Below are positions 36,062-50,503 of a stretch of DNA of 64,000 bases, in pieces. The position numbers and the translations under genes are program-made. Each line of letters opens with the position of its first letter. Positions within the stretch are counted from its first letter, which is position 1. The stretch is from a virus. Taxonomy: Duplodnaviria; Heunggongvirae; Uroviricota; Caudoviricetes. The notes beneath the pieces are model-generated. The model worked only from the letters and a program-made list of their open reading frames with translations. It did no database searches and was not told the origin of the DNA. The stretch is taken from positions 31,723-95,722 of the IMG/VR virus record IMGVR_UViG_3300011337_000467; one strand, given 5' to 3'.

Positions 36062-36113
36062 ATACTTTACAATTACACAAAGGTCATCCACGACCTAAAC
36101 TCGGAGAATAAAA

Positions 36114-36806: not shown

Positions 36807-36916
36807 TTATTATATCTAACAAAACTGGTAACATTCAATTTCCAGTTGAAGAAGGATTGTTGGAATGGTTGCAAGCAACCTATCCCTACTCTCAGTACCA
36901 CTTGGCGGAGATTTAA
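36803..36916 (+). CDS. Micro-ORF (37 aa) coupled on both sides by overlapping start and stop codons
   Basis: ATG overlaps the folE stop (ATGA at 36803) and its TAA abuts the next ATG (TAAATG). It exactly fills the inter-genic gap. Confidence 0.3.
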   Translation: MIIISNKTGNIQFPVEEGLLEWLQATYPYSQYHLAEI

Positions 36917-37243: not shown

Positions 37244-37626
37244 TGTCCACCTGGGTGCTAACTACCAAGACCAAAAAGAACGCTGTTGAAAAGCAGTTTT
37301 GGACCAAGGATGGGCGAACTATCATCCGTGAAGAAGGCTATCGTTGGGGCAAGTTCTACTGCGAAAACGACGAGCGCCCTGATGTGGATCTTGCCAACCC
37401 AGATGGCTATGAACTTGGCGACAGTGAGTATGACTGGGAACTTGACCATCTTGATGATGGCTGTTGGGCAGACTGGACATTTCCAGATGACATGACTGAA
37501 GAAGAACAACAAGCAATCGAAGCAGCCTGGGACGAAGACTTTTACGATGGTATGGAAGGTCTAGGCTGGAGCAATGATGATACTGAATACTGGTTCTACG
37601 GTGAACTGGAACTGGAACAAGCATGA
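37243..37626 (+). CDS. Highly acidic Trp-rich protein (DNA-mimic or anti-restriction candidate)
   Basis: 127 aa with long D/E runs ('DWELDHLDDGCWADWTFPDDMTEEEQQAIEAAWDEDFYDG'). Confidence 0.4.
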   Translation: MSTWVLTTKTKKNAVEKQFWTKDGRTIIREEGYRWGKFYCENDERPDVDLANPDGYELGDSEYDWELDHLDDGCWADWTFPDDMTEEEQQAIEAAWDEDFYDGMEGLGWSNDDTEYWFYGELELEQA

Positions 37627-38546
37627 CCCTACCATTACAGCCTGAATTGATTGGACGGCCTTATGCGCCGGCTGAATGTGTTGTGGAGCAACAGCAACTT
37701 GATCTAACCCATCAAGTGTTGCAATCTACTGCACTTAACAACTTGGGCGATTCAGTAGTACCCGACTACTGTGCTCAATTTCAAAATTGGATTTTGAGCA
37801 GCCAACTAAACACTGTGACTGGGTTGGATACATTGCCAGTTGTGGCATTTAGTCAAGGCACTACAGAAGCCTTTGATAATTTTTATATCCGACATCATGA
37901 TCGACGGTTTAGAGTATTTCGTGGAGAATACATCTATCACAAACGTATATGGCAGCGTCACTATGCAGACCAATGGACGTTTATAGATGTTGATGATATC
38001 AAAACAAATGATGCAGTGATTGTGAGTTGGCCATTTGCTGATACCGGAAACACACACGAACATTTTAATCAGAAGTTCTTGGACAAGTGTTATGAATTGG
38101 GCGTGCCTGTACTGATTGACGCTGCCTTCTTTGGTGTGTGCGCAAATCAACATTATGACTTTTCTCATCCAGCTATTCAAGAGGTGGTGTTTAGTCTTAG
38201 CAAAAGTTTTCCGGTAAATGCCTTGCGTATTGGTATTAGATTTGCTAGAGAAGATTTTGAAGACGGCATGCAAATCTATCACAGCACTCAGTACGTAAAC
38301 AAGTTATCGGCTGCAATTGGTCTCAAATTAATGGCCAGTAGAAATCCAGATACCACGTTTACCAAATGGCGTTCTAAACAATTGGAGTTTTGCAATCAGT
38401 TAGATCTTGAACCAAGTGATACAGTACTGTTTGGCATAGACACCGAGCACAAATATGATCACTACAATCGTGGCAGTTTGCAAACCAATAGATTGTGTTT
38501 TAGTCGCTACTATGAGTCTGGAAAGTTAGTAGTAGATGAGCGTTAA
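37623..38546 (+). CDS. Enzyme of uncertain family (PLP-aminotransferase-like 'SLSKSFP' block or amidotransferase-like 'GVCANQ'), translationally coupled to the PP-loop gene
   Basis: ATGA overlap upstream, and its 3' end overlaps the next start by 11 nt. The motifs are only partial matches. Confidence 0.35.
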   Translation: MTLPLQPELIGRPYAPAECVVEQQQLDLTHQVLQSTALNNLGDSVVPDYCAQFQNWILSSQLNTVTGLDTLPVVAFSQGTTEAFDNFYIRHHDRRFRVFRGEYIYHKRIWQRHYADQWTFIDVDDIKTNDAVIVSWPFADTGNTHEHFNQKFLDKCYELGVPVLIDAAFFGVCANQHYDFSHPAIQEVVFSLSKSFPVNALRIGIRFAREDFEDGMQIYHSTQYVNKLSAAIGLKLMASRNPDTTFTKWRSKQLEFCNQLDLEPSDTVLFGIDTEHKYDHYNRGSLQTNRLCFSRYYESGKLVVDER

Positions 38547-39369
38547 CACATGGCATCCAGCTGGCCATAATGGCTGGTGCAGTGTAAATCTTACACCTGA
38601 ACAGTTTTCATTTCGAGTTAACAATCCTGCTACTGAAGAATTGGATTTTCAATCAGCATGTGACATTGCTGCACAAATGCTATGCCAGGAGTGGAGCAAC
38701 CGGCCACTATATCTCAGCCTTAGTGGCGGACTCGACAGTGAATTGATTGCCAACACTTTTGTTAGAAACCATATTTCATTTACACCAGTGATCCTTCAAG
38801 TTAGCAATCTCAATGCCGCAGAGTCTTGGTATGCTGAATATTGGTGCCAACAACACAACGTAACTCCGTTAATTAAAACAGTAACTATTTCTGAGTATGA
38901 GGACATTGTTAAAAAGTATTTGTTAGTGTTAAGAAACACTCACCAAACTGGTATTGTAGCTAATTTATATCTAGCTGACGAAATTCAAGCTCTTGGCGGA
39001 TACTATGTAAATGGTGTGGGTGATATCAATCAAGATCAAGATCAAGATCACTTTTATTGTAACATTGTGGACTTTGCGTTAGATGTGTTTAGATCCGGTC
39101 AACACCCTACAGGATTTTTTATGTATACTGCCGAATTAGCATTGGCATATATCAAAATGTTTGATTCAGCAATAAATGAGCAGTATAATAAACTAAGATT
39201 TTATAATGTGTCGCCAAGGCCTAAAATTGCCTGGGTAGAACAAGTGATTTCTAGTAGTACACGACTGTTTCGCATGTTAGACTTTTGGTATACACATGTA
39301 CCAAATTCTCAACCACACCAGTTTGGTAACAAACAAGATGTAATCAACGTATTAAAAGGAGTTAAATGA
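38536..39369 (+). CDS. PP-loop ATP pyrophosphatase (QueC-like / adenine-nucleotide alpha-hydrolase superfamily)
   Basis: 'LYLSLSGGLDSELIA' SGGxDS PP-loop near the N-terminus. No C-terminal CxxC...C zinc site as in canonical QueC. Confidence 0.55.
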   Translation: MSVNTWHPAGHNGWCSVNLTPEQFSFRVNNPATEELDFQSACDIAAQMLCQEWSNRPLYLSLSGGLDSELIANTFVRNHISFTPVILQVSNLNAAESWYAEYWCQQHNVTPLIKTVTISEYEDIVKKYLLVLRNTHQTGIVANLYLADEIQALGGYYVNGVGDINQDQDQDHFYCNIVDFALDVFRSGQHPTGFFMYTAELALAYIKMFDSAINEQYNKLRFYNVSPRPKIAWVEQVISSSTRLFRMLDFWYTHVPNSQPHQFGNKQDVINVLKGVK

Positions 39370-39761
39370 CTGATTTAGAAATTGCACGTCAACAAGGCAT
39401 TGCACCCTGGGACGACCGTGTGGAAGAACTTTCGGACTTTCATGTAGCTGCGTTCCGTGATCGCTTTCCAGTAACTTCAGGACATTTGTTGTTTGTGCCA
39501 CAATACAATACTGATGATGTAATCATGGAATGTTTTGAATCAGCCATGTTGCATGGTCGGCGTATGGTAGCTGATGGCAAGTGTGATGCGTTCAACATTG
39601 GCATCAACATGGGGCGAGAAGCAGGGCAAACTGTAATGTATCCGCATGTGCATTTGATTCCACGACGTGTGGGCGATTGTGCAGATCCTGTGGGTGGGGT
39701 ACGTGGAGTTATTCACGGACAAGCCAACTACAAAACAACAGGCTATCAACAACCTGCATAA
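39366..39761 (+). CDS. HIT-family (histidine-triad) nucleotide hydrolase/transferase-like protein
   Basis: 'AFRDRFPVTSGHLLFVPQ' and 'GQTVMYPHVHLIPR' match HIT blocks. The triad is degenerate (HVHLI instead of HxHxH). ATGA overlap with the upstream gene. Confidence 0.55.
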   Translation: MTDLEIARQQGIAPWDDRVEELSDFHVAAFRDRFPVTSGHLLFVPQYNTDDVIMECFESAMLHGRRMVADGKCDAFNIGINMGREAGQTVMYPHVHLIPRRVGDCADPVGGVRGVIHGQANYKTTGYQQPA

Positions 39762-39797
39762 GTATTTCTCTAAGCGGCCTGTCCGGCATCATCCCGC

Positions 39798-39826
39798 TAT
39801 ACAAACTCTGCTGCCTATGCTATAAT
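39798..39826 (+). promoter_or_regulatory. Candidate promoter (TATACA-17-TATAAT) upstream of queD
   Basis: Perfect -10 TATAAT at 39821-39826 with a 4/6 -35 at 39798-39803. GGAGG Shine-Dalgarno follows. Confidence 0.4.
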
Positions 39827-39844
39827 GTCATAGGAGGACAAATA

Positions 39845-40342
39845 ATGCAACCGATAACATACAAATTTACTTCAACCAAAGAGTACCATGACGCATTTCC
39901 ATGTGCGTATAGACAGTGGAGGGCTGACAGCCACTGCAATCTAATTCATGGTTACAGTTTTTCGATGAAGTTTTACTTTGGCACAGACAACCTGGATGTA
40001 CGCAATTGGGCAGCCGATTATGGTGGTCTCAAAGAACTCAAGAAGCAATTGGAAGATCAATTTGATCATACCTTACTAGTATCTGCAGATGATCCAGAGC
40101 TGGAAACATACAAGCTCTTGCAAGAGAAGAAAATGGCCAAACTCACCATCCTACCACGGCTGGGCTGTGAAGGCCTAGCAGACATGCTGTACAAGTATGT
40201 GAACGGTGTTTACATTCCGGACCTGTGGGGACCGGGTGAAGCAGAGCGTCTCTGGTGCTATCGTGTAGAAGTGCGTGAAACACAGAGCAACATGGCTTTC
40301 CGAGAAGGCCATCGCGAGTGGATGGAAGATCTGTTCGTTTAA
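39845..40342 (+). CDS. queD: 6-carboxy-5,6,7,8-tetrahydropterin synthase (QueD/PTPS fold)
   Basis: 'CNLIHGYSF' (CxxxHGH-type zinc motif) and 'DHTLL' (DHxxLN-like). Start at Met 39845 with a GGAGG Shine-Dalgarno. Confidence 0.65.
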   Translation: MQPITYKFTSTKEYHDAFPCAYRQWRADSHCNLIHGYSFSMKFYFGTDNLDVRNWAADYGGLKELKKQLEDQFDHTLLVSADDPELETYKLLQEKKMAKLTILPRLGCEGLADMLYKYVNGVYIPDLWGPGEAERLWCYRVEVRETQSNMAFREGHREWMEDLFV

Positions 40343-40359
40343 TATAACAAGGAAAAATC

Positions 40360-40986
40360 ATGTTAGATCGAATCTTAAATGGTGTTGACCGTGCATTGGC
40401 CTACAAGCTCATGCTGGCACATATCATTATTATTGCTGTTAGCAATTACATCGTGCAATTTAAATTCTCAGTGTTTGGTGCACCATTGGCAGCAGCCGCG
40501 TTCACATTTCCACTAGTGGTTGTGTTGACCGACTTGACTGTGCGAATGTTAGGCAAACAAACTGGTCGTGCCGTGATTGCCTTGGCATTCATCCCTGCCA
40601 TCATTGTATCAATGGCGGTAGTCAAATTAGGCGGTGCTCCTGACTCAGTGGCTTTCCGGATTGGTCTTGGTTCAGGTGTTGCATACTTTGTGAGCAATTT
40701 GCTTGATGTGTACGTGTTCCAATACATTCGTGAGAAGTATGCTACTTGGTGGATTGCACCTGCGTTGAGTTCAATTGTGAGCACATTCTTTGATACCTAT
40801 GTGTTCTTCTTTACTGCATTTGCCGGTGGTGCCAATGAGTTTATGGCTGCTAACTGGCACATTGTTGCAACCAACAATTCAATCAGCAAAGTCATTGTGA
40901 GCTTATTGGTTATCCTACCTGCTTATGGATTGTTGTTGAGTCACTTGCAGAAAAAAATAGTAGAAGATATTAAACAACCTAACTAA
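40360..40986 (+). CDS. yhhQ: YhhQ/Vut-family queuosine-precursor (preQ0/preQ1) transporter
   Basis: 'AVSNYIVQ', 'FTFPLVVVLTDLTVR' and ~6 TM segments match the YhhQ (DUF165) pattern ('SSNYLVQ...FLATDLTVR') closely. Confidence 0.75.
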   Translation: MLDRILNGVDRALAYKLMLAHIIIIAVSNYIVQFKFSVFGAPLAAAAFTFPLVVVLTDLTVRMLGKQTGRAVIALAFIPAIIVSMAVVKLGGAPDSVAFRIGLGSGVAYFVSNLLDVYVFQYIREKYATWWIAPALSSIVSTFFDTYVFFFTAFAGGANEFMAANWHIVATNNSISKVIVSLLVILPAYGLLLSHLQKKIVEDIKQPN

Positions 40987-41003
40987 TGGACATTGACCAT
41001 AAC

Positions 41004-41029
41004 AAAAACCCAGGTAACTCTGGGTTTTT
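41004..41029 (+). terminator. Rho-independent terminator hairpin
   Basis: AAAAACCCAG-gtaact-CTGGGTTTTT: 5-bp GC-rich stem, 6-nt loop, A-tract before and T5 after. Confidence 0.6.
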
Positions 41030-41069
41030 AACAAGTTATATCCAGGGCACAGAACAGATTAAATAAGAC

Positions 41070-43043
41070 ATGAACAAAAAAACAATAAGTTTTGTACAGC
41101 CCAACTTTCAACAAGGGCCTAAAGAATTCAATGCCTACTACTTGCCGTATTCTGCAGGTGTGATTTTGAGTTACGCCTTTGGGTTTGAGCATATTAAAAA
41201 TGCCTGGGAAATTGATGAATTAATTTGGCGTAGAGAGCCCATTGAAGAAGCAGCCGCAAGATTGCAACACAATGACATTGTGGCGTTTAGTGCCTATGTA
41301 TGGAATCACAGATACAACTACAAACTAGCACGTCGAATCAAAGAACTCAATCCCAAAGTAAAAATTATATTTGGTGGACCCGAGCCTGCTATTACGGATC
41401 CTGAATTGTTTGTGAAAGAACCTTTCATGGATCTTGTGAGCAAGATGGAAGGCGAGATCACATTCAAACGCATCCTAGAAGATTTTGACACAGACTTTAC
41501 GCACATTCCTGGCTTGTTGATTAACACACCAGCAGGGCTAGTAGACACTGGAGATTGTGCCAGAATCGACAATCTAGATCAAATCCCCAGTCCTTACCTT
41601 GCCGGCATCTTTGATCGAATCATAGCTGAAAATCCTGATGTAATTTGGAATGCTACATTGGAAACCAATCGCGGTTGCCCTTATCAGTGTACCTTTTGTG
41701 ACTGGGGCAGTCTCACTTACAACAAGGTCAAGAAATTTGAACTCACTAGAGTGTTCCATGAATTAGAATGGATTGGTCGCCATTGCGGATTTGTCACAAT
41801 CACAGATGCCAACTTTGGCATGTTCATTGAACGTGACAACATGATTGTGGACAAGTTGATTGAAGTACAAAAGCAATGGGCCAAGCTGGCGTCATTTTCT
41901 ATGACATGGGCCAAGAATCAAAAGAACGAAGTAGTGGGCATTGTAAAGAAATTGATCGACGAAAGCCCCAACTTTGGTCAAGGCCTTACTGTGAGTGTGC
42001 AAAGCATGGACCACGATGTGTTGGAAAACATCAAGCGTAGAAATCTTGATCAACACAAGATTGACGAAATCTTTGCTTTGTGTGATCGCAACAATATTCC
42101 TGTGTACACAGAAGTTATCTTGGGCTTGCCAGGTGAAACTGTGGAAACTTGGAAAAATGCTTTTTGGCAAATCTTCCGTGCAGGTAACCATACTGGTGTG
42201 AACATTCTCCAAGCGCAGTTGTTGGAAAATGCCGAGATGAATCTCTTGCAAAAACGAATGTGGAAGCTGGATTCAGTGCCAGTGTATGACTACATGAGTG
42301 GCAGCTATGGTGATGTAGACATGGACGAGTGTGTGGATGTTGTGGTAGGAACCAAAGACATTCCACGAGAAATGATGTTGGACACACTGGTATGGAACAG
42401 TTTTATTCAAACTTTTCACATCAACGGGTTGACCACGTACATTGCTAGATACTTGGCCAAAGCTCATGACATTGACTACAGTGAGTTCTACGACAGTTTG
42501 TACAAGTATATTGAAAGCGATGCATGGTTTCAACAACAGTTTGATGAGACACGCAGTTACTTTAGAAACTGGACCACAGACGGTCGTATCAATCATCCTC
42601 GAATTGGCAACATCGAAGTGTTTGGATGGAATCTTGTGCATCGAACCACTTTGTATATGCAACAGCAACAAAAGATCAATCATGTGTTCGATATCATTGA
42701 CAACTTTGTAAGAACCACGTATACTATTGACAGCAACATACTAAATCAGTTGTTGCAGTTTCAGAGAAACTATGTGATTGATTACAAAGATTTACCAGCA
42801 TTGCCAATTCAACAAAAGTTTGACTATGACTTTCTTGGATATCTACTGGACGATGCTGACATCAACACACCATGCTTGTACAAATTTGACAGCGTGGAAG
42901 ATAAAACCATGAGCATGGATCGGTTCTTAGAGAACATGTATTTTGCTCGCAAGCGGAATTTTGGAAAAACAACAATAACAAAAACTAATTCAGCCAACTT
43001 ACCTGAAATAGAATATGACAACAGAGAACTTATTACCCCTTGA
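41070..43043 (+). CDS. Class B (cobalamin-binding) radical SAM enzyme
   Basis: N-terminal B12-binding-like region (IVAFSAYVWNH...KIIFGGPEP) followed by 'NRGCPYQCTFCDW' CxxxCxxC. 657 aa. Confidence 0.65.
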   Translation: MNKKTISFVQPNFQQGPKEFNAYYLPYSAGVILSYAFGFEHIKNAWEIDELIWRREPIEEAAARLQHNDIVAFSAYVWNHRYNYKLARRIKELNPKVKIIFGGPEPAITDPELFVKEPFMDLVSKMEGEITFKRILEDFDTDFTHIPGLLINTPAGLVDTGDCARIDNLDQIPSPYLAGIFDRIIAENPDVIWNATLETNRGCPYQCTFCDWGSLTYNKVKKFELTRVFHELEWIGRHCGFVTITDANFGMFIERDNMIVDKLIEVQKQWAKLASFSMTWAKNQKNEVVGIVKKLIDESPNFGQGLTVSVQSMDHDVLENIKRRNLDQHKIDEIFALCDRNNIPVYTEVILGLPGETVETWKNAFWQIFRAGNHTGVNILQAQLLENAEMNLLQKRMWKLDSVPVYDYMSGSYGDVDMDECVDVVVGTKDIPREMMLDTLVWNSFIQTFHINGLTTYIARYLAKAHDIDYSEFYDSLYKYIESDAWFQQQFDETRSYFRNWTTDGRINHPRIGNIEVFGWNLVHRTTLYMQQQQKINHVFDIIDNFVRTTYTIDSNILNQLLQFQRNYVIDYKDLPALPIQQKFDYDFLGYLLDDADINTPCLYKFDSVEDKTMSMDRFLENMYFARKRNFGKTTITKTNSANLPEIEYDNRELITP

Positions 43044-43872
43044 CAATCCCATCGACATCAGTATTTTATTGCCCACTCGTGGCAGACCAAAACCACTAGA
43101 ACAATGCCTACGCACTCTACTTGACCGGGCCAAAGACCCCAGTCGAATAGAAGTGATGTTGGCATTTGATAATGATGATAGTGAAAACATCAAACACTTT
43201 GTGGATGTCGTACAACCTTATCTTGATGACCTTGGTGTAGAATACAGCGCCATACAGTTTGAAAGATTAGGGTACATGCGACTAAACGAGTACCTTAACG
43301 AGTTGGCCAAGCACAGTCAAGGCTCTTGGTTGTTCTTTTGGAATGACGATGCTGTGATGAAAACACAGGATTGGGATCAGGTGATTCGAGACAACGGGCA
43401 AGAATTCAATTTGCTCCGTGCCGAAACCAATCACGAACACCCTTATGCTATCTTTCCTATCCTGCCAAAGAAGTGGGTGGAAATTACTGGCCATTTGAGT
43501 CCGCATCAAATCAACGATGCCTGGACCAGCCAAGTGGCTTGGATGTTGGATATTGTGAAAACAATTCCTGTAATGGTACACCATGAACGCTATGATCTTA
43601 CTGGCGAGAACTTGGATGAAACATTCAAAGAACGTATCATGTTGGAAAACATGCCCGGCAATGATCCTAGAGATTTCAATCACATTACCTGGCGCAAACG
43701 CAGGGTTGAAGAAACTGAAAAAATTGCAGACTATCTTGACAGCATAGGCCGCGATACCACGTGGTTTAGAGATTCAATGACCGGTAAAAATCCAAACATC
43801 TGGGCCAGAATGGTCCTGCAAGATCCACACAAACGATTAAGACAATGGAAGGACAGTCCCTTTGAGCAATGA
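43015..43872 (+). CDS. GT-A fold (GT2-like) glycosyltransferase
   Basis: 'ISILLPTRGRP..L..CL.TLL....DPSRIEVMLAFDNDDSE' matches the GT2 N-terminal block with a DxD-like 'DNDD'. Start may lie a few codons later since it overlaps the radical SAM stop. Confidence 0.5.
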   Translation: MTTENLLPLDNPIDISILLPTRGRPKPLEQCLRTLLDRAKDPSRIEVMLAFDNDDSENIKHFVDVVQPYLDDLGVEYSAIQFERLGYMRLNEYLNELAKHSQGSWLFFWNDDAVMKTQDWDQVIRDNGQEFNLLRAETNHEHPYAIFPILPKKWVEITGHLSPHQINDAWTSQVAWMLDIVKTIPVMVHHERYDLTGENLDETFKERIMLENMPGNDPRDFNHITWRKRRVEETEKIADYLDSIGRDTTWFRDSMTGKNPNIWARMVLQDPHKRLRQWKDSPFEQ

Positions 43873-44635
43873 ACTAATAGACAAGATTGTGCAGTACTGG
43901 GATCGCCAGCCCTGTAACATCAACCACAGCGCCAGTGAAGTTGGTACTGAACAATTCTTTAACGAGAATAGCGAAAAACGCTACTTTGTTGAACCACATC
44001 TCAAAGATCTAGCACAGTTTCATTTGTATGCTGGCAAACGTGTGTTAGAAATTGGATGTGGCATTGGTGCCGATGCAGCTGAGTTTGCCAAGCATGGTGC
44101 CGAGTATGTTGGTATCGATCTCAGCAGTGAAAGCATTGCATTGGCCCGGAAACGATTTGAAGTTTTGGGACTGGAAGGTCAATTCATTCAAGGTAGCGGC
44201 GATGATGACTTGTCACACTTGGGCAAATTTGATTTGGTTTACAGTTGTGGTGTGTTACATCACTATCCAGACATTGATCGTGTGATTGAAAACATACACA
44301 GTTTGACCGTGGACGGTGGCGAGTTCAAAATGCTAGTGTATGCTCGTGACAGTTGGAAGTATGCCATGATCCAAAAAGGTCTGGACCAATACGAAGCACA
44401 AGCCGGATGTCCGTATGCCAAAGCCTACACAAAAGAAGAAGTCTATCAGTTGCTAGAGGGCAAATTCCATATCGGACGCATTAGACAAGCGCATTGTTTC
44501 ATGTATAATGTACCTAAGTACAAGCAAGGTATCTATGAACTGGAACCTTGGTTTGCGGCAATGAGCGAAGAAATGCGTCAAGCAGTTCGCGAATACTTGG
44601 GTTGGCATCTACTGGTTAAAGCAACAAAAATATGA
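43862..44635 (+). CDS. Class I SAM-dependent methyltransferase
   Basis: 'VLEIGCGIGADAAEFAKHGAEYVGIDLS' motif I/II and 'LVYSCGVLHH' motif IV-like block. Confidence 0.7.
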   Translation: MSNELIDKIVQYWDRQPCNINHSASEVGTEQFFNENSEKRYFVEPHLKDLAQFHLYAGKRVLEIGCGIGADAAEFAKHGAEYVGIDLSSESIALARKRFEVLGLEGQFIQGSGDDDLSHLGKFDLVYSCGVLHHYPDIDRVIENIHSLTVDGGEFKMLVYARDSWKYAMIQKGLDQYEAQAGCPYAKAYTKEEVYQLLEGKFHIGRIRQAHCFMYNVPKYKQGIYELEPWFAAMSEEMRQAVREYLGWHLLVKATKI

Positions 44636-45504
44636 AATTAAAAGTTAGTGAGTTATTTTATTCTGCACAGGGCGAAGGACGCTTTGTTGGTGTTCCTTCA
44701 GTGTTCCTACGCACATACGGATGCAACTTCACTTGCTCAGGCTTTGGCTGCGCTCCGGGCGTACAGTCTACCGAAGCAGACCAAGTGGCAAAGAACATAC
44801 ACCTGTACAAGGATTTTCTTGAACTGCCGCTTGTGAACACCGGATGTGATAGCTACGCTTCGTGGCATCCTGCATTTAAGGAACTAAGTCACACACTCAC
44901 ACATGATGAACTGATTGAAAAGATGTTGGTTCTTACACCCAATCATCACTGGCAACAAGACAACGGCAATGATGTGCATCTTGTGATCACAGGTGGTGAA
45001 CCGCTGTTGGGTTGGCAGCGTGGATACGAAGAACTGCTGTCGCAAGGCAGTATGGGTGACTTAAAGAACATCACATTCGAAACCAATGGCACTCAAAAGT
45101 TACAGCCAGCATTTCGAACATTTTTGCACGAATGGCGTCGCCCTGCACTAGGGGCCGTGCCCACGCGAGAAATTACTTTCTCAGTAAGTCCCAAGCTATC
45201 AGCGTCAGGCGAATCGTGGTCGGATGCTATCAAGCCCGAGATTGTGGCAGACTATCAAATGCATGGCACAGTATATTTAAAATTTGTGGTAGAAACACTG
45301 GCACACTTTGAAGAAGTTGATCGTGCTGTGGCTGCATATCGTGAAGCAGGTTTCCGTGGTGTTACCTATGTGATGCCACAAGGCGGTGTGGTCACTCCAT
45401 ACGAACGCAACCGAGTGAATGTAGCTGACTGGGCACTGGCTCGTGGTTATAACTATAGCCCAAGATTGCATGTGGATCTCTGGGGCAATGGCTGGGGCAA
45501 ATAA
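44632..45504 (+). CDS. queE: 7-carboxy-7-deazaguanine synthase-like radical SAM enzyme (QueE family)
   Basis: 'SELFYSAQGEGRFVGVPSVFLRTYGCNFTCSGFGC', 'VITGGEP' and 'FSVSPKL' parallel the E. coli QueE blocks. ATGA overlap with the methyltransferase gene. Confidence 0.65.
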   Translation: MKLKVSELFYSAQGEGRFVGVPSVFLRTYGCNFTCSGFGCAPGVQSTEADQVAKNIHLYKDFLELPLVNTGCDSYASWHPAFKELSHTLTHDELIEKMLVLTPNHHWQQDNGNDVHLVITGGEPLLGWQRGYEELLSQGSMGDLKNITFETNGTQKLQPAFRTFLHEWRRPALGAVPTREITFSVSPKLSASGESWSDAIKPEIVADYQMHGTVYLKFVVETLAHFEEVDRAVAAYREAGFRGVTYVMPQGGVVTPYERNRVNVADWALARGYNYSPRLHVDLWGNGWGK

Positions 45505-45708
45505 ATGTCCGAAACAAAAAAACGTACAGTAGCAAGGATGCTTACATATAGATTGACAGCCTGGCTGTTCACAATCTTTTGGACATACCTATTTACAGGT
45601 AATCTAGGCAACTCAGCAGGGTTTGCTACTGCATTACACATTCTGTTGAGTGTTGATTACTACATACACGAACGTATATGGTTGAAAATCAAATGGGGAC
45701 TCAAGTAA
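45505..45708 (+). CDS. Small two-TM membrane protein
   Basis: Starts 1 nt after the queE stop. Two hydrophobic helices. Confidence 0.4.
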   Translation: MSETKKRTVARMLTYRLTAWLFTIFWTYLFTGNLGNSAGFATALHILLSVDYYIHERIWLKIKWGLK

Positions 45709-45761
45709 TGACCAGTCTCCAAAGCAAACAAACATGTTATTTTTAAAATTAAAAGGAATTA

Positions 45762-46862
45762 ATGAGTTATCTATTTACAAGTGAAAGTGTGTCAGAAGGA
45801 CATCCGGACAAAATCGCGGATGCTATTAGCGATGCAGTGCTAGACATTGTGATGGCTAAACAGGATCCCGCTCTACGTTGCGCATGCGAAACGTTGGTTA
45901 CTACCAATCGTGTGGTGGTGGCAGGAGAATACAAAGGCGTTTTACATGCTGAGGAAGTTGAATCAGCAGTGAGAAAAGTTATCAAGGATGTGGGTTACGA
46001 ACAGTCAGGTTTTGATTGGCGTACGGCAGAAATTACCAACTTGTTACACGGGCAAAGTGCAGATATTGCACTGGGTACAGATACGTTTGGCGCAGGCGAT
46101 CAGGGCTTGATGTTTGGTTATGCCTGCAACGAAACTGATAATCATATGCCCAGTGCAATCTATTGGAGCCATCGTATTGTAGAAACTTTGACTCGTGTAC
46201 GAAAAAGTTTAGCACTGCCGTGGTTAGGACCAGACGCCAAAAGTCAAGTAACGTTTGAATACAACGACAATGGTACTCCCAAACGCATTGCCAAAGTAGT
46301 TTGCTCAACTCAGCATCATGAGTCCGTGGACATCGACCAAGTTCGAATGTCTGTTGAAAGTGTAATCCGTGGTACTCTTCCTGAAAAATATGTTGATGAC
46401 AAAACTGAATTTTATATTAACCCTACTGGTAGATTTGTTATTGGTGGGCCTGATGGCGATACTGGGCTTACTGGCCGCAAGATTATTGTTGACACTTACG
46501 GCGGGTATAGTCCTCATGGTGGCGGAGCCTTCAGCGGCAAAGATCCTACTAAAGTGGATCGCAGTGCTGCCTACTTAACACGCTGGATTGCCAAGAACAT
46601 TGTGGCAAGTGGTCAAGCACCGTGGGCTACAGTGCAGATCAGTTACGCAATTGGACTTGCACAACCCATGAGTTTCTACGTGGAAACAGCTGACGCACAA
46701 CAAGGACGTGATCTAACTAAATGGATTCAGGATAACGTTGACTTGACACCCAAGGGTATTATTGAACGTTTTGACTTGTTCCGCCCTATCTATAGTACAA
46801 CAACTAACTACGGGCATTTTGGCAAAGACTATTTGCCTTGGGAAACTGTGGATTTATTCTAA
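45762..46862 (+). CDS. metK: S-adenosylmethionine synthetase (MetK)
   Basis: 'LFTSESVSEGHPDKIAD', 'GAGDQG' and 'DTYGG' match MetK blocks. 366 aa. Confidence 0.9.
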   Translation: MSYLFTSESVSEGHPDKIADAISDAVLDIVMAKQDPALRCACETLVTTNRVVVAGEYKGVLHAEEVESAVRKVIKDVGYEQSGFDWRTAEITNLLHGQSADIALGTDTFGAGDQGLMFGYACNETDNHMPSAIYWSHRIVETLTRVRKSLALPWLGPDAKSQVTFEYNDNGTPKRIAKVVCSTQHHESVDIDQVRMSVESVIRGTLPEKYVDDKTEFYINPTGRFVIGGPDGDTGLTGRKIIVDTYGGYSPHGGGAFSGKDPTKVDRSAAYLTRWIAKNIVASGQAPWATVQISYAIGLAQPMSFYVETADAQQGRDLTKWIQDNVDLTPKGIIERFDLFRPIYSTTTNYGHFGKDYLPWETVDLF

Positions 46863-46871
46863 GGAAACTAT

Positions 46872-47258
46872 ATGGGATTTTTTGATAGATTTAAAAAGAA
46901 ATCTGAGCCCAAGGTCAAGGCCGAGACCAAGCCCAAGGTACCGGTAAAAACAGAAAAGCAACTTGCTACAGAAAAGGGCGAGCCTTATGTGGCTGTGCTT
47001 AGTATGGATGTGGATCCCAACAACCTGCATCAAGGTGCATTTGAACTAGACTGGAACGAAATCTTTGTGGCACGACTGGTCAAGGCTGGCTATATGTTGA
47101 AACCTGCTGACAGTGACGGCGAGATTGTGGATCGATGGTTTCAAAATGTGTGCCGACATGTTGTGATGGAAACATGGGAACAAGAACAAGCAATTAAAAA
47201 CTCCGGCATGTATGTGCAAAAACGTGATCTCGGAGACGGACGGAGCGAAATAGGATGA
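46872..47258 (+). CDS. Hypothetical protein (Lys-rich N-terminus)
   Basis: 128-aa ORF; no motif. Confidence 0.4.
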   Translation: MGFFDRFKKKSEPKVKAETKPKVPVKTEKQLATEKGEPYVAVLSMDVDPNNLHQGAFELDWNEIFVARLVKAGYMLKPADSDGEIVDRWFQNVCRHVVMETWEQEQAIKNSGMYVQKRDLGDGRSEIG

Positions 47259-47731
47259 TATTCAATCACATTAAAGACCTCAAAGCCGAAGGTAAAAAAA
47301 TCGGCATCACATTCAGTCAATTTGACATGCTACATGCAGGACACATTGCCATGTTGGCTGAAGCAAAAAATCATTGCGATTATCTAATTGTAGGCCTGCA
47401 AACAGATGCCAGCATTGACCGACCGGGAATTAAAAATCCCCCTGTGCAAAGCATTGTGGAACGCCAGATACAATTGAGTGCATGTAGATTTGTAGACGAA
47501 ATTGTTGTGTACACTACCGAACAAGACCTAATTGACTTGATACTAACCTTGCCAATCGATGTACGCATACTTGGTCGAGAATATGAAGATACTAACTTTA
47601 CTGGTCGCAATGAAGGTGCTGGGCAACACATTGAGCATGTGTTTAACAGCAGAGATCATTCATTCTCAAGTTCAAGCCTGCGCAAGCGTGTGGTGGCTGC
47701 CGAAACAGAAAAAGTATTACTACAACGATGA
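47255..47731 (+). CDS. Cytidylyltransferase-fold sugar-phosphate nucleotidyltransferase (RfaE domain II / TagD-like)
   Basis: 'IGITFSQFDMLHAGHIAMLAEAKNHCDYLIVGL' matches the GTFDxxHxGH...YLIVG signature. ATGA overlap upstream. Confidence 0.65.
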   Translation: MIFNHIKDLKAEGKKIGITFSQFDMLHAGHIAMLAEAKNHCDYLIVGLQTDASIDRPGIKNPPVQSIVERQIQLSACRFVDEIVVYTTEQDLIDLILTLPIDVRILGREYEDTNFTGRNEGAGQHIEHVFNSRDHSFSSSSLRKRVVAAETEKVLLQR

Positions 47732-48456
47732 TATTATATGTAAATGGATGCAGTCACACAGCGGCTGCAGAAGCAGTGGTTCCTGATGCGTTTGCTGTGG
47801 ATGATGGCCGATACGGCATTGACCGCCGCCCTCATCCCATCAACTTGGAAGCCAGCTGGGGCAAGAATTTGAGTCGATTGCTCAACACTGAATTTTACTG
47901 TGATGCCGAAACAGCAGCCAGCAATGATCGTATACTGCGCACTACTACAGATTGGATTCACAACAATTATAGCCGCTTGTATGATACTGTGATGGTGATT
48001 CAATGGACCACATGGGAACGAGAAGAATGGGTGTTCGAAGGCAAGCACTATCAAGTAAATGCCAGTGGTGTAGACATGGTGCCACCAGAACTTGAAGCTA
48101 GATATCGTCAGTACATTTTGGATGTGAATTGGAATCAAAAAACAGATGAGTGGCACAATAAAATCTGGCATCTGCATTGTCGACTAAAAGACCTTAATGT
48201 GCGGCATCTTTTCTACAGCGGTAACAGCACATTCAGTGATATGCCAAATCAAAGAGATTGGCAAAATCACTACATCCAACCTTACTCAAGAGAACACAGT
48301 TGGAATGCCATACTAAAAAACAACGGATTCGAACATGTGAATCCCAAAAGTTATCACTTTGGAGCCAATGGTCATAGATTTTGGTCGGAATATGTGTTAC
48401 AATACTTAAAGCAACACAAACTTCTGGACCGATTTGATGAAATATCTACTGATTGA
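47728..48456 (+). CDS. SGNH/GDSL-like hydrolase (paralogue of 18323..19132)
   Basis: 'ILYVNGCSHT' N-terminal block and a C-terminal 'GANGHRFW' His block. ATGA overlap upstream. Confidence 0.35.
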   Translation: MILYVNGCSHTAAAEAVVPDAFAVDDGRYGIDRRPHPINLEASWGKNLSRLLNTEFYCDAETAASNDRILRTTTDWIHNNYSRLYDTVMVIQWTTWEREEWVFEGKHYQVNASGVDMVPPELEARYRQYILDVNWNQKTDEWHNKIWHLHCRLKDLNVRHLFYSGNSTFSDMPNQRDWQNHYIQPYSREHSWNAILKNNGFEHVNPKSYHFGANGHRFWSEYVLQYLKQHKLLDRFDEISTD

Positions 48457-49471
48457 TACTGCCAACATGTTCTTCCGTGCCCGCCATTCGGCGCACAGGG
48501 CTAGCGACACATGGACTAAATTAGGCTTTGCACTGCACTTGACCATGATGAGTGCTAATAAAGTAGCTAGACGTTTTGGTGTAGACCATGTGGTTTTTGC
48601 ATTGGAAGGACGCAGCTGGCGCAAAGACCACTACAAACCCTACAAAGCCAATCGTGCTGTGGCACGTGGTGCCATGAGCGAAACTGAAGCAGAAGAGGAC
48701 AAGTTGTTTTGGGAAACCTATGATGAACTGACTAAATACTTGTCTGAGAAAACAAATTGTAGCGTGATCCGTTGCGCAACAGCAGAAGCGGACGATATCA
48801 TAGGCCGCTGGATTGCACTACACCCCCAAGATGAACATATTATCGTTAGCAGTGATTCAGACTTCGTTCAGTTGGTTGCACCAAATGTGCAATTGTACAA
48901 TGGCATAAACGATCACCTGTTCAGTGTTAATGGCGTAACAGATGCCAAAGGCAACAAATTGAGCTTTACAATTGAAAGCAATTCCAAGATCAAAGTAGGC
49001 AAAGCTGATAAAGACTTTGTGGCTCCAACTGACTATCAGAAGTGGGTGTTGTTCTTGAAATGTGTACGCGGTGATCCCGGCGACAATGTGTTCTCGGCAT
49101 ACCCTGGTGCACCAGTTAAAGGCACAAAGAATCGTGTGGGCATTACAGAAGCATTTGAAGATCGCAACAAAAAAGGCTACAATTGGAACAATCTCATGTT
49201 GCAACGTTGGACTGACCACGAAGAAAAAGAACACAAGGTGCTTGACGACTACGAACGTAATGTCACACTGATTGACCTCACTGCACAACCACAAGAAGTG
49301 AAAGATACTGTGGATGCTGTGATCAGTGAACAAGTCAGTGCTAAAGACACGGGCATGGTGGGCGCACACTTTCTTAAATTCTGTGGCAAGTATGAACTCA
49401 CCAAGCTGAGTGACCAAGCAGAGCCAATTGGTCGCTGGCTGAATCAAACATATCAAGGAGTGTTAAAATGA
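48434..49471 (+). CDS. Flap endonuclease / 5'-3' exonuclease (T4 RNase H / T5 D15-like)
   Basis: 'LLIDTANMFFRA', 'YKANR', 'AEADDIIG' and 'SSDSDFVQL' match FEN-family metal-binding blocks. Confidence 0.75.
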   Translation: MMKYLLIDTANMFFRARHSAHRASDTWTKLGFALHLTMMSANKVARRFGVDHVVFALEGRSWRKDHYKPYKANRAVARGAMSETEAEEDKLFWETYDELTKYLSEKTNCSVIRCATAEADDIIGRWIALHPQDEHIIVSSDSDFVQLVAPNVQLYNGINDHLFSVNGVTDAKGNKLSFTIESNSKIKVGKADKDFVAPTDYQKWVLFLKCVRGDPGDNVFSAYPGAPVKGTKNRVGITEAFEDRNKKGYNWNNLMLQRWTDHEEKEHKVLDDYERNVTLIDLTAQPQEVKDTVDAVISEQVSAKDTGMVGAHFLKFCGKYELTKLSDQAEPIGRWLNQTYQGVLK

Positions 49472-49914
49472 TAGTAGCAAAACCAGTAATTGACAATCAA
49501 TACTGGATTCTCAAACAAAACAATCAAAAGATTGGTAACATTGAGGCCAGTGCAGATGGTTATGTTGTAAAAATACAAAATCAAGTATCCAATTACAAGA
49601 CCATGCCCATGGTTAGAGAAGTGATTGACATCACTTTTGAACCTTCCGAAACAGTCACCCCACCACCTAATGATTCAGTTCACGGTTATGAAACCGGGTG
49701 TAAGACCTACAATGGATTGTGGAATGTGAGACTGAAGTTGCCGCTGTTTACCAAACAAGAGAAATCCAAGTCATGGTTCGCAGCCGGATGGTACACAGTA
49801 AAACAACATCGCTCATGGAAGATTGTGCGCAACCCTAAACTGATTGCACTTGATCGTTACAAGTATCAAGGACCATTTTACACCAAGGAGCTGGCTAGTG
49901 AATCCCTTTCGTGA
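49468..49914 (+). CDS. Hypothetical protein
   Basis: ATGA overlap with the FEN gene; 148 aa. Confidence 0.4.
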   Translation: MIVAKPVIDNQYWILKQNNQKIGNIEASADGYVVKIQNQVSNYKTMPMVREVIDITFEPSETVTPPPNDSVHGYETGCKTYNGLWNVRLKLPLFTKQEKSKSWFAAGWYTVKQHRSWKIVRNPKLIALDRYKYQGPFYTKELASESLS

Positions 49915-49927
49915 TCAAGAAAAATTT

Positions 49928-50263
49928 ATGAAGGCTTGTGACCAAAGCGTTGACAAATTTAATGGCACACAGTTTGATATGTACTGTGCTCTCATCGAAG
50001 AAGAACACAAAGAGCTCAAGGTTGCTCTTGCCGAGGACGACGAAGTTGAAATAGTCGATGCGTTGCTGGATATCCTTGTTGTTACAATTGGTGCATTACA
50101 CAGCTATGGTGCTGATGCCGAAGGTGGCTGGAAGGAAGTCATGACCACAAACTTTGCCAAGATCGACAAAGAAACAGGCAAGGTTCGCAAGCGCGAAGAT
50201 GGTAAGGTACTCAAGCCAGTAGGCTGGACTCCTCCTAATTTAGAACCATATCTTAAAAAATGA
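49928..50263 (+). CDS. MazG-like nucleoside triphosphate pyrophosphohydrolase
   Basis: 'CALIEEEHKELKVALAEDDEVEIVDALLDILVVTIGAL' matches the MazG/HisE EExxE...D core. Start chosen at the first ATG after the upstream stop. Confidence 0.6.
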   Translation: MKACDQSVDKFNGTQFDMYCALIEEEHKELKVALAEDDEVEIVDALLDILVVTIGALHSYGADAEGGWKEVMTTNFAKIDKETGKVRKREDGKVLKPVGWTPPNLEPYLKK

Positions 50264-50472
50264 GTTTGCACATCAATCGGTTTATTGACTCAATCAAGGC
50301 AGCAGAAAGCCGTGGACAGAAAGATCTTATCATGTCCGTGCGTGATGCCAAAGACTTGCATGGTGATATAACCAAGTTGTTGTTGGCGCTAGAACAATCA
50401 CGCAGAGAACAGGCCAGGCAAAATGAGCCAATTGAGGTAGTTTTGTCAGGTGGCAGTTTTAAATCTGCATAG
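50260..50472 (+). CDS. Small hypothetical protein
   Basis: ATGA overlap upstream; 70 aa. Confidence 0.35.
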   Translation: MSLHINRFIDSIKAAESRGQKDLIMSVRDAKDLHGDITKLLLALEQSRREQARQNEPIEVVLSGGSFKSA

Positions 50473-50503
50473 TTATTGGGATAAATAAACACGGAGTTTA
50501 TCT

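Follow-up and report, generated by a model that had tools for sequence, protein, structure and literature searches.

A predicted sugar-tailoring and sugar-transfer cassette in a hypervariable slot between queD and queE of a freshwater jumbo-phage lineage

The window analysed here is a 64,000-nucleotide stretch of DNA from an uncultured and abundant lineage of freshwater jumbo phages, and about 160 contigs with related loci were compared with it. Genes for FolE, QueD and QueE lie in its replication module, flanked by PolB (25201-27861) and by FEN/MazG. The genes considered are as follows.

33335-34531, + strand: GT4-type GT-B glycosyltransferase (BUCT-ZZ01 homologue, Glyco_trans_1_4; AF2/Foldseek)
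34528-35490, + strand: GalE-like NAD epimerase (PF01370, 1.4e-51)
35465-36061, + strand: DegT-like short protein (PF01041, 1.7e-16)
36114-36806, + strand: FolE, GTP cyclohydrolase I, predicted step 1 of the CDG pathway (PF01227, 1.3e-38)
37623-38546, + strand: PLP-dependent aminotransferase/decarboxylase-like protein, CobD/HisC-like (PF00155, 2.2e-5; TIGR01140, 1.3e-9, below cut-off)
38536-39369, + strand: PP-loop ATPase with SGGLDS motif, NadE-like rather than QueC-like (PDB 3p52 profile match)
39366-39761, + strand: HIT-family protein (PF01230, 1.1e-10)
39842-40342, + strand: QueD, 6-carboxytetrahydropterin synthase, phage Cx3HGY variant (PF01242, 2.3e-16; aligns to PDB CPH4 synthases)
40360-40986, + strand: YhhQ/Vut_1 transporter (PF02592, Vut_1, 1.3e-21)
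41070-43043, + strand: class B (B12-binding) radical SAM enzyme, 657 aa (PF02310, 3.6e-11; PF04055, 1.1e-9; motif CPYQCTFC)
43015-43872, + strand: GT2, family 2-like glycosyltransferase of GT-A fold (PF00535, 27.3 bits against a cut-off of 23.3; phrog_14945, 2e-13)
43862-44635, + strand: class I SAM-dependent methyltransferase, generic UbiG/PMT-like Rossmann (Methyltransf_12/25/31/11, 1e-17 to 1e-20; phrog_22502, 1.7e-57)
44632-45504, + strand: QueE-like radical SAM protein, phage-type 7-carboxy-7-deazaguanine synthase (phrog_2076 'QueE-like', 4.9e-52, full length)
45505-45708, + strand: DUF2061 small membrane protein, 67 aa (PF09834, 5.4e-6)
45762-46862, + strand: MetK, S-adenosylmethionine synthetase (three MetK domains, 1e-33 to 1e-58)
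47255-47731, + strand: RfaE-domain-II-like sugar-phosphate nucleotidyltransferase (PF01467, 2.7e-10; TIGR02199, 3.2e-22, below cut-off)
47728-48456, + strand: DUF6071 protein (PF19547, 1.1e-6), in our reading similar to SGNH hydrolases
49844-50263, + strand: MazG/PRA-PH-like NTP pyrophosphohydrolase, conserved and lying downstream of the FEN gene (PF01503, 2.5e-9), from a family with 66 members in related loci

The B12 radical SAM, GT2 and methyltransferase genes, called the trio below, overlap one another and queE by 29, 11 and 4 nt. The initial annotation had described these ORFs, overlaps and domains correctly, and its enzyme classes (class B radical SAM, GT-A glycosyltransferase, class I methyltransferase, MetK) agree with Pfam, PDB and AF2 results. 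Because these genes are conserved at 54-100% identity across dozens of independent metagenomic contigs, they are real coding genes; the methyltransferase begins at a non-ATG codon, TTG. The annotation had also placed metK immediately downstream of queE, overlooking the DUF2061 ORF between them, a frequent companion that follows queE in many loci. No more than about a dozen relatives have MetK itself after queE, some of them trio-less (L105, L111, L143), and six radical SAM genes are present in the window; MetK is thus an accessory SAM supplier, not one specific to the trio. YhhQ is an optional gene of the queD-queE interval that only some loci have. The PP-loop ATPase, for which neither Pfam nor NCBIfam gave a match and whose profile found an NH3-dependent NAD synthetase in PDB (3p52, E=4.5e-4), is likewise optional, with the PLP-dependent gene as its optional partner.

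Phages proven to carry deazaguanine in their DNA encode homologs of FolE, QueD and QueE, so the pathway context proposed for the trio is real, and by homology these three enzymes of the window would form a route to 7-carboxy-7-deazaguanine (CDG). QueE, conserved throughout the lineage, is 37-45% identical to QueE of BUCT-ZZ01, VH7D, nt-1 and KVP40, and its N-terminal motif could be aligned to PDB entries 6nhl and 4njg. The Cx3HGY motif of QueD is common to phi19:2, a phage with dDG in its DNA, and BUCT-ZZ01. Known phage clusters for 7-deazaguanine DNA modification (Hutinet 2019, Cui 2023, PMC10516641) consist of FolE-QueD-QueE, with or without QueC, QueF, DpdL, DpdM or DpdN, plus DpdA1-4. The window resembles such clusters in its FolE, its QueD (as in phiST/phi19:2), its phage-type QueE (as in VH7D, nt-1 and CP220) and its setting, a replication and nucleotide-metabolism module with a MazG-type NTPase nearby; as in phiST and Campylobacter phages, the predicted pathway is CDG-only, with no QueC. 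It differs in its hypervariable queD-queE interval and in carrying GT-B, GT-A, cobalamin radical SAM and sugar-nucleotide enzymes; for the eight derivatives that have been described, no such enzymes are required. As first noted, the described phage deazaguanine pathways neither use nor need enzymes of the B12 radical SAM or glycosyltransferase type (PMC10516641).

Residues 23-481 of the B12 enzyme match TokK (PDB 7kdx, E=3e-77), and further matches are to CysS (PDB 9n1b, 1.7e-43) and the KedN5 model NF033712 (2e-64, although its 218 bits fall under the family cut-off of 700). Judged from its sequence, the protein is one of the TokK/ThnK/CysS/KedN5-type C-methyltransferases; the alignable stretch of about 460 residues takes in the B12-binding N-terminus, the CxxxCxxC radical SAM core and the helical region after it. 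TokK and ThnK perform carbapenem C6 alkylation, and CysS/KedN5-type enzymes extend O-methyl groups iteratively. The window enzyme, in contrast, has about 175 additional C-terminal residues and is surrounded by sugar-nucleotide and glycosyltransferase genes rather than by a carbapenem or polyketide cluster. We predict methylation at an sp3 carbon, which most likely belongs to a sugar. Its closest cellular relatives are found in glycan or sugar-nucleotide clusters at 77 of 77 loci, with GT2 (34 loci), GHMP kinase (27), NTP-transferase/phosphatase fusion (20), cupin (19) and epimerase (18) genes as neighbors and no que gene beside any of them. Two phage orthologs, in L049 (76% identical) and L076 (51%), occur with radical SAM, UGDH and epimerase genes and no que gene within 10 kb; orthologs apart from que genes occur in L048-50, L053, L055, L058, L061-64, L068-70 and L074-80. 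With its cellular and its 51-76% identical phage relatives in such que-free sugar contexts, C-methylation of the base itself, as initially proposed for this enzyme, finds no support.

The AlphaFold model of GT2 (pLDDT 89.4) has a GT-A fold, and its best PDB matches by Foldseek are TarP (4e-10), then TarS, RmlT and WrtF; a DXD-type motif, N110-D111-D112, is invariant in the family alignment. No substrate is assignable to the methyltransferase from its sequence. Its closest homolog in an isolated phage, 47% identical, is gp226 of Synechococcus phage Bellamy, within a sugar cluster (gp215-228), while that of GT2, 25% identical, belongs to a sugar cluster of Pelagibacter phage HTVC008M (gp156-162). 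Those clusters contain a kinase, a nucleotidyltransferase, epimerases, a carbamoyltransferase, a NadE-like protein, UGDH and glycosyltransferases, and they share the epimerases, nucleotidyltransferase, NadE-like PP-loop enzyme and UGDH with the window or its relatives. They differ in having no que genes in the stretches examined (17-21 kb) and no TokK-type B12 enzyme, and their roles are equally putative. Because the relatives of all three trio enzymes sit in sugar or glycan clusters free of que genes, the trio most likely tailors and transfers a sugar rather than modifying the base directly.

Direct action on deazaguanine would have the methyltransferase esterify the CDG carboxylate and the TokK/CysS-type enzyme extend that methyl group, or the B12 enzyme C-methylate the base, with GT2 adding a sugar separately. 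The iterative chemistry of CysS and KedN5, supported by the PDB and NCBIfam matches, would suit such a scheme, as would the position of the genes and their translational coupling with queE; the best NCBIfam matches of the methyltransferase include carboxyl O-methyltransferases (BchM, Mtf2), all far under cut-offs. Nevertheless, the B12 enzyme and the methyltransferase occur independently of one another, GT2 plus methyltransferase without the B12 enzyme being common in related loci and GT2 plus B12 enzyme without the methyltransferase also occurring; both are found away from any que gene; and no homolog context ties this radical SAM family to purines. We regard direct action as very unlikely.

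Among 87 locus entries, 46 gene orders were counted between queD and queE, and this interval is a dedicated hypervariable cargo slot. Across loci the backbone of GT-B, GalE, DegT, FolE ... QueD ... QueE, u46872, DUF6071 and FEN is kept, the GalE-like and DegT-like sugar-nucleotide genes in both lineage types. Slot contents range from nothing through GT2 plus methyltransferase (sometimes fused), or GT2 plus B12 enzyme, to complete deoxysugar toolkits and nucleotide enzymes. In sister phages the slot contains MazG and a GMP-reductase/IMPDH-like gene (PF00478, 2e-68), and a PRTase gene immediately precedes queD; L013 combines window-type cargo with a PRTase and an HhH-GPD glycosylase. About 40 loci have HIT with GT2 (with or without the B12 enzyme or methyltransferase), and twelve have PRTase with a small MazG and none of the trio. 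HIT and GT2-type cargo co-occur, and HIT and the configuration of PRTase with small MazG exclude each other, but the two arrangements belong to different sublineages, so that phylogeny confounds the contrast. Actinomycete toyocamycin/tubercidin-type pathways add a PRTase and a GMP-reductase-like enzyme to FolE, QueD and QueE. Type B sister phages pair the same enzymes, a logic of deazapurine processing at the nucleotide level, whereas the window lacks the PRTase and GuaC-like genes, has HIT, GT2, methyltransferase and B12 enzyme instead, and is of phage context.

The same slot admits a second account, which we consider rather doubtful: an independent sugar or glycan cassette, serving a glycoprotein of the virion, a glycan of the host envelope or some other DNA base, would have settled in a recombination-prone gap while the deazaguanine pathway runs without it. 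In L106, L112 and L110, queD and queE are adjacent or parted only by small ORFs, so the CDG pathway does not need the trio. Other intervals of the region vary too, with insertions throughout, and the slot could therefore be a recombination hot spot. The que-free homologs in Bellamy and HTVC008M, the B12 enzyme orthologs away from que genes, the cellular glycan clusters and the best structural match of GT2, to the phage-encoded teichoic-acid glycosyltransferase TarP, point the same way. Against an independent cassette stand the clear purine-nucleotide enzymes in sister-phage slots, the mutual exclusion just described, the location in the replication module rather than structural or lysis modules, and the GT2 family itself, which is small (798 matches) and hardly found outside this lineage and position. 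A glycosyltransferase that moved together with que genes into BUCT-ZZ01 also argues against it.

That enzyme, the GT4-type GT-B, is extremely conserved in the lineage and 64% identical to a protein of BUCT-ZZ01, a cyanophage unrelated to the window lineage; among 50,697 phage records this is its sole homolog, matching Glyco_trans_1_4 and encoded 3 kb from FolE-QueD-PRTase-QueE. By sequence comparison, no other sugar enzyme accompanies que genes from one phage into an unrelated one. In CP220, whose DNA is fully dADG-substituted (PMC10516641), a UGDH-like gene located two genes downstream of queE is homologous (E=5e-13) to a slot family. Because the slot carries purine or deazapurine-nucleotide enzymes and the GT4 enzyme travels with que genes, a glycosylated deazapurine is a reasonable hypothesis, and a link of the trio to deazaguanine is plausible. 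The AF2 model of GT-B, of moderate confidence (pLDDT 61.7), resembles small-molecule GT4 enzymes: Foldseek returned BshA (3e-8), MshA and BGluT, and matches included two glucosyltransferases of tetrahydrobiopterin, 9v0l and 5ze7. The second of these comes from Synechococcus PCC 7942, host of BUCT-ZZ01. T4 DNA glucosyltransferases (AGT/BGT) were absent from the top 50 structural matches.

The initial annotation took DNA as the target of modification, a destination that we infer and against which the searches for DpdA weigh. Pfam scans found no TGT domain in the window ORFs, a search of 3,552 ORFs with a DpdA1 HMM and a DpdA3 sequence returned nothing better than an E of about 1, and hhalign of 88 gene families for DpdA gave at most 3% probability. 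DpdA of any subfamily thus went undetected in the window and within ±10 kb of que genes in about 160 related loci, another difference from known phage clusters; to our knowledge, every known deazaguanine modification of DNA has DpdA as its signature enzyme. PRTase is absent from window-type loci, and with no DpdA either, no route into DNA was identified there. These absences, like the GT-B matches (though that model is modest), would suit a soluble metabolite, a glycosylated deazapurine or pterin-type compound comparable to pterin glycosides or huimycin-type deazapurine glycosides. Pterin synthesis also starts with FolE and a PTPS-fold enzyme, and YhhQ-family transporters, which include a preQ0/preQ1 importer, handle free bases; que genes and YhhQ might alternatively only boost host queuosine-tRNA, the sugar genes decorating something else. 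Such products outside DNA seem unlikely. Pterin synthesis does not need QueE, which is lineage-wide and homologous to QueE of proven deazaguanine-DNA phages; replication and nucleotide genes surround the cluster, and sister phages add PRTase, MazG and HhH-GPD glycosylase. None of the queuosine-specific genes QueA, QueG, QueF and Tgt was seen, and the tRNAs at the window end (Met, Arg, Leu) are not Q-carrying ones.

We tentatively prefer to read the trio as a sugar-tailoring and sugar-transfer cassette whose product would be a glycosylated 7-deazaguanine derivative in virion DNA, a possibility short of a probability. The initial interpretation is in this sense partly supported: the variable slot with its purine-nucleotide enzymes and the GT4 enzyme beside que genes favor an undescribed glycosylated deazaguanine, and the methyltransferase and GT2 relatives in que-free sugar clusters count against it. 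In the proposed sequence, whose order and acceptor are likewise conjectural, FolE, QueD and QueE would convert GTP to CDG. The GT4-type enzyme would add a first sugar to a CDG-derived deazapurine, on the free base, on the nucleotide or after entry into DNA; against this reading, CDG offers no obvious hydroxyl as a sugar acceptor. The slot GT-A enzyme would then add or extend sugar, with donors from the GalE, DegT-like, HIT and RfaE-II-like enzymes. The methyltransferase would add a methyl group to an O or N of that sugar and the TokK/CysS-type enzyme one to a C, the sugar and not the base being its target, and MetK would help to maintain SAM for both, as well as for four further radical SAM enzymes encoded in the window.

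T-even phages decorate hydroxymethylcytosine variably with glucosyl, gentiobiosyl or arabinosyl groups. The likeness is one of concept, by analogy only: a non-canonical base produced by the nucleotide-metabolism module of the phage, with sugar decoration that varies between sister phages. Here the GT4-like and GT2-like enzymes are unrelated to the T-even ones, the base would be a purine analog, and the window is known from its genes alone. The lineage may thus produce an undescribed sugar-bearing deazaguanine, a glycosylated 7-deazaguanine in virion DNA whose decoration would differ from one sister phage to another.

The genes of the locus are listed here, with assignments drawn from Pfam, PHROG and NCBIfam; the trio comprises the B12-binding radical SAM enzyme (B12-rSAM), the GT2 glycosyltransferase and the methyltransferase (MT).

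Genes at the cassette, with the first of the upstream genes
33335-34531, +, GT4-type glycosyltransferase (GT-B)
40360-40986, +, YhhQ, from the ORF list
41070-43043, +, B12-rSAM, 657 aa, with B12-binding and Radical_SAM domains and the motif CPYQCTFC
43015-43872, +, GT2, 285 aa, Glycos_transf_2 just over cut-off
43862-44635, +, class I MT, 257 aa, TTG start, by Pfam
44632-45504, +, QueE-like radical SAM enzyme, 290 aa, phrog_2076 at 4.9e-52 across the full length
45505-45708, +, DUF2061 protein, 67-aa ORF, by Pfam
45762-46862, +, MetK, complete, three S-AdoMet synthetase domains

The ORFs, overlaps and domain calls given for the trio, QueE and MetK in the initial annotation were accurate; the overlaps in the ORF list are 29, 11 and 4 nt. 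MetK had been placed directly after queE, and it is indeed complete (PF00438, PF02772 and PF02773 all match, at 4e-33 to 3e-58), but the DUF2061 gene, previously overlooked, intervenes. MetK lies 3' of queE in about 12 loci, whether or not the trio is present. A megablast search of 40360-46862 against 50,697 phage records returned no match, and operon boundaries could not be drawn from a promoter and terminator scan of 33000-50500.

Upstream on the cassette strand, GT-B is followed in order by a GalE-like epimerase, a short DegT-like protein, FolE, two small unknown ORFs, a PLP enzyme, a NadE-like PP-loop protein (38536-39369), a HIT protein and QueD. Downstream come a small unknown ORF, an RfaE-domain-II-like nucleotidyltransferase, DUF6071, a FEN-type 5'-3' exonuclease and a MazG/PRA-PH-like NTPase. 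PolB (25201-27861) finds its best matches in jumbo phages (Phosso 51%, Atu_ph07 47%, Vibrio 2.275.O 45%). Six radical SAM genes, two with SPASM domains, occur in the 64 kb (7763-8932, 21061-22173 on the minus strand, 29575-30567, 41070-43043, 44632-45504 and 50795-51820). An exact-protein look-up added about 10 kb 3' of the window; immediately beyond the window's 3' end, a related contig (L264; L-numbers designate the loci compared with the window) carries a 543-aa B12-binding radical SAM enzyme between two TctC-like genes. Other genes of the window are the following.

Other genes of the window
1913-2698, +, DnaJ (PF00226, PF01556)
2757-5036, +, full ClpB-type double-AAA chaperone
8971-9891, +, ORF with a faint Anp1 mannosyltransferase-like match, sugar-related, far from the que region
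9909-14915, +, 1,668-aa protein, Amidoligase_2 (PF12224, 2.5e-7) with a C-terminal dCMP/cytidine deaminase (PF00383, 9e-11)
17005-17814, +, DUF6492 protein (PF20102, 3.1e-12), sugar-related, far from the que region
53780-55315, -, asparagine-synthase-like amidotransferase (PF00733, PF13537), 66-91% identity in relatives

The amidoligase-deaminase fusion is unusual, and its two domains suggest that the protein may take part in modifying nucleotides or bases. The amidotransferase and the NadE-like PP-loop protein are the two carboxylate-amidating enzymes of the window. The same phage lineage and gene order, at 55-80% identity, is found in a 183-kb contig (L182, NZ_JBBAKG010000001.1) of a Haliscomenobacter sp. 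MAG, a binning that gives a weak hint of a Bacteroidota host.

FolE, QueD and QueE, the set for CDG (7-carboxy-7-deazaguanine)/preQ0 synthesis, are all present in the window. Compared over its full length, QueE has 37-45% identity with its counterparts in the Synechococcus phage BUCT-ZZ01 and the Vibrio phages VH7D, nt-1 and KVP40, and the counterpart in Campylobacter phage CP220 is 28% identical; measurements have found deazaguanine in the DNA of VH7D and of CP220 (PMC10516641). Against five NCBIfam QueE models, only the N-terminal 50 or so residues align, with scores far under the cut-offs, and the cluster motif, GCNFTCSGFGC, is unusual. The Cx3HGY motif of QueD is common to the QueD proteins of BUCT-ZZ01 and of phi19:2, a phiST-type phage with deazaguanine (dDG) in its DNA. 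Given this likeness of QueE and QueD to those of deazaguanine-DNA phages, the three enzymes most likely make CDG. The PP-loop protein was considered as a QueC and rejected, its match being to NadE instead; since it is the sole PP-loop protein, the window contains no QueC or QueC-like ATPase. The NadE-like gene is itself missing from most relatives. FolE, a PTPS-type protein, GT4, GalE and MT together could also be taken for the makings of a pterin glycoside, an idea prompted by BGluT among the structural matches, but it was given less weight, since QueE is conserved without exception in the lineage and is homologous to QueE of deazaguanine-DNA phages. A tRNA cluster starting at 63594-63851 (+) encodes tRNA-Met(cat), tRNA-Arg(tct) and tRNA-Leu(taa), with no queuosine-bearing tRNA among them.

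The B12-rSAM has an N-terminal cobalamin-binding Rossmann domain (PF02310, 3.6e-11, 43.4 bits where the cut-off is 32.1) and a radical SAM core (PF04055, 1.1e-9) whose CxxxCxxC motif, C203-P-Y-Q-C207-T-F-C210, is unchanged across 10 homologues, the most distant of them at 52% identity. It aligns to TokK (7kdx, E=3.1e-77, residues 23-481) and matches CysS (9n1b) at 1.7e-43. Its best NCBIfam match, KedN5 (NF033712), scores 217.9 bits, below the 700-bit cut-off, which makes it a relative of the KedN5 subfamily, not a member. Its kinship is with the iterative cobalamin C-methyltransferases, and the predicted reaction is methyl transfer to an unactivated carbon.

The initial annotation proposed that this enzyme C-methylates the base, a claim that the contexts of its relatives do not support. 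A family-alignment scan of 185,579 species genomes gave 79 B12-rSAM loci, including the phage contig L182. The cellular relatives, at most 37% identical over the full length and chiefly from gut Clostridia, lie in glycan clusters, where their neighbors are GT2 (34 loci), GHMP kinase (27), an NTP-transferase/phosphatase fusion (20), cupin (19), epimerase/dehydratase (18), more B12-rSAM paralogues and polytopic membrane proteins; none has FolE, QueD, QueE or YhhQ nearby. Two phage orthologues, L049 (76%) and L076 (51%), similarly have UGDH, epimerase, DegT-like and further radical SAM genes as neighbors, and no que gene lies within 10 kb of either. Searches of isolated phages found only two partial matches at about 25%, in gut contigs, and these are uninformative. 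The TokK-like B12 radical SAM enzymes in the glycan clusters of L184-L260 (mainly gut Clostridia MAGs), present at about three paralogues per locus, may constitute an uncharacterized family of glycan C-methyltransferases.

The partners of the B12-rSAM have similar associations. GT2 matches PF00535 over the cut-off, and its AlphaFold model (pLDDT 89.4) has a GT-A fold, with Foldseek matches to TarP (4e-10), TarS, RmlT and WrtF; the DXD-type motif, N110-D111-D112, is invariant in 28 sequences. MT is matched by five Methyltransf_* models at 1e-17 to 1e-20, every one over its cut-off, and carries VLEIGCGIG as its glycine-rich SAM-binding motif. The nearest isolated-phage relative of MT, Bellamy gp226 (47%), lies within a sugar cluster, as does that of GT2 (25%), from Pelagibacter phage HTVC008M. 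The contexts of B12-rSAM, MT and GT2 relatives argue for a sugar or glycan, rather than the deazapurine ring, as the substrate of the trio, and the best reading of these three genes is a cassette for tailoring and transferring a sugar.

To place this cassette among related phages, 80 IMG/VR loci with the B12-rSAM and 80 with QueE were fetched, the window proteins were mapped onto them, and 3,552 ORFs were clustered. The backbone order is kept: two backbone genes (u32111 and u32608), GT-B, GalE, DegT and FolE, later QueD, later QueE, and after QueE the backbone gene u46872, DUF6071, FEN, the backbone gene u49468 and the MazG-like gene. The interval between queD and queE, by contrast with this conserved order, shows 46 gene orders in 87 locus entries. 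It is empty in L106 and L112; elsewhere it holds small unknown ORFs alone, YhhQ alone, an extra radical SAM gene, or the set found in the window. GT2 plus MT without the B12 enzyme is common. GT2 occurs with a 54% divergent B12-rSAM and without MT in L108, L117 and L067, and a GT2-MT fusion is found in L097, L098 and L102. Full deoxysugar toolkits (L021-23, L109, L154) include NDP-hexose C-methyltransferase, cupin, SDR, UGDH-like, GalE-like and DegT-like proteins and TPP-dependent E1 subunits. The B12-rSAM itself occupies the slot in about 10 of the 76 QueE-anchored loci.

In a second sublineage, the slot carries a GMP-reductase/IMPDH-like gene (PF00478, 2e-68), a DAO-type oxidoreductase and a small MazG, with a PRTase directly upstream of queD. 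Among loci with FolE, QueD and QueE, about 40 have HIT and GT2, with or without B12-rSAM and MT, while 12 have PRTase and the small MazG and lack HIT, GT2, B12-rSAM and MT. The two sets look like alternative fates of one precursor, but the split coincides with the two sublineages and is therefore not independent evidence. Sister-lineage loci L116, L122, L132 and L135-L145 combine FolE, QueD and QueE with PRTase, small MazG and sometimes the GMP-reductase/IMPDH-like gene, a layout that is that of nucleotide-level deazapurine pathways and that hints at pre-replicative incorporation without DpdA, the TGT-like DNA transglycosylase of known deazaguanine DNA modification. The PRTase is missing from the window type. 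The nucleotide enzymes of the sister phages show that the slot is able to carry pathway-relevant genes.

GT-B provides the strongest link between glycosylation and the CDG pathway, in that it has moved with que genes into the unrelated BUCT-ZZ01. The protein is extremely conserved: the best 120 of its nearly 8,000 matches are 86-96% identical. Exactly one homolog occurs in 50,697 isolated-phage records, 64% identical, in the T4-like cultured cyanophage BUCT-ZZ01 (L081, 11995-18929), where it lies 3 kb from QueE-PRTase-QueD-FolE, accompanied by a u32608 homolog and a second GT-B. Because GT-B adjoins QueE, PRTase, QueD and FolE there, BUCT-ZZ01, which is grown on S. elongatus PCC 7942, is a culturable system for the question of a glycosylated deazapurine. 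The structural model of GT-B is moderate (pLDDT 61.7, pTM 0.62) and looks like GT4 enzymes that act on small molecules (BshA, MshA, pterin glucosyltransferases); no T4-type DNA glucosyltransferase was among the best 50 Foldseek matches to this moderate model. CP220 (L083, 12969-14803) offers a further likeness: next after its QueE comes a membrane protein with two helices, as DUF2061 directly follows QueE in the window, and then a UGDH-like short dehydrogenase homologous (E=5e-13) to a family of this lineage's queD-queE slot.

On this evidence, we tentatively hold it possible, at somewhat short of an even chance, that the sugar of the cassette ends up on deazaguanine. That the cassette has nothing to do with the deazaguanine pathway is rather unlikely in our judgment. 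If the sugar is placed on deazaguanine, DNA seems the likeliest destination.

DpdA is the signature protein of such DNA, encoded by every phage with known deazaguanine DNA (PMC10516641). Scanning the larger ORFs of the window detected no TGT Pfam domain, and no TGT was found in the 10 kb or so past its 3' end. For DpdA1 an HMM was made from the proteins of phage 9g and nine relatives, and for DpdA3 the protein of Cellulophaga phage phi19:2 was used with phmmer; across the ORFs of the window and some 160 loci, the lowest E from the two was about 1. A search by tblastn with the same DpdA3 was negative, and hhalign of 88 gene families gave DpdA a probability of at most 3%. DpdA3/4 are very divergent, and since BLAST does not connect the DpdA3 of phiST to that of CP220, the failure to find a DpdA3 carries little weight. 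The search covered about 160 related loci and, of a genome of more than 300 kb, the window with some 10 kb beyond its 3' end; its outcome lowers confidence in DNA as the destination.

A bolder proposal, one we consider unlikely in its entirety, is that this abundant lineage of freshwater jumbo phages and at least one cyanophage replace DNA guanine with a glycosylated 7-deazaguanine whose sugar is varied by the queD-queE cassette, with no recognizable DpdA. The cassette here would supply three enzymes, namely a transferase of the GT-A type, a methyltransferase acting on O or N, and a sugar C-methylase of the cobalamin radical SAM type, and sister phages would swap cassettes to place different sugars on 7-deazaguanine. 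To our knowledge, the eight deazaguanine modifications known from phage DNA are without exception small position-7 substituents, and DpdA installs every one of them. T-even phages contain glucosylated hydroxymethylcytosine; a sugar-bearing deazaguanine would be its purine counterpart. If true, it would be the first sugar-bearing purine analog in DNA and the first case of DNA hypermodification that involves a B12 radical SAM enzyme; deazaguanine carrying a methyl-branched sugar that varies would be a chemistry new to DNA, and because no DpdA is visible, it would also suggest a new route of base delivery into DNA. The literature searched held no description of a trio set among que genes in this way, and nothing relevant on this lineage, on DNA modification in BUCT-ZZ01 or on glycosylated deazaguanine in phages.

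Beyond the original finding, the most useful results are the hypervariable slot, the GT4 enzyme that travels with que genes, and the lack of any detectable DpdA. Lakes harbor this lineage in great abundance, with thousands of near-identical proteins in public metagenomes, and the modification, if real, would therefore be ecologically widespread and could affect sequencing, restriction and CRISPR targeting of these phages. Even if the cassette is unrelated to deazaguanine, the queD-queE slot is a place to seek new nucleotide and sugar chemistry, and the glycan-associated TokK-like B12 radical SAM enzymes are a candidate new group of sugar C-methyltransferases.
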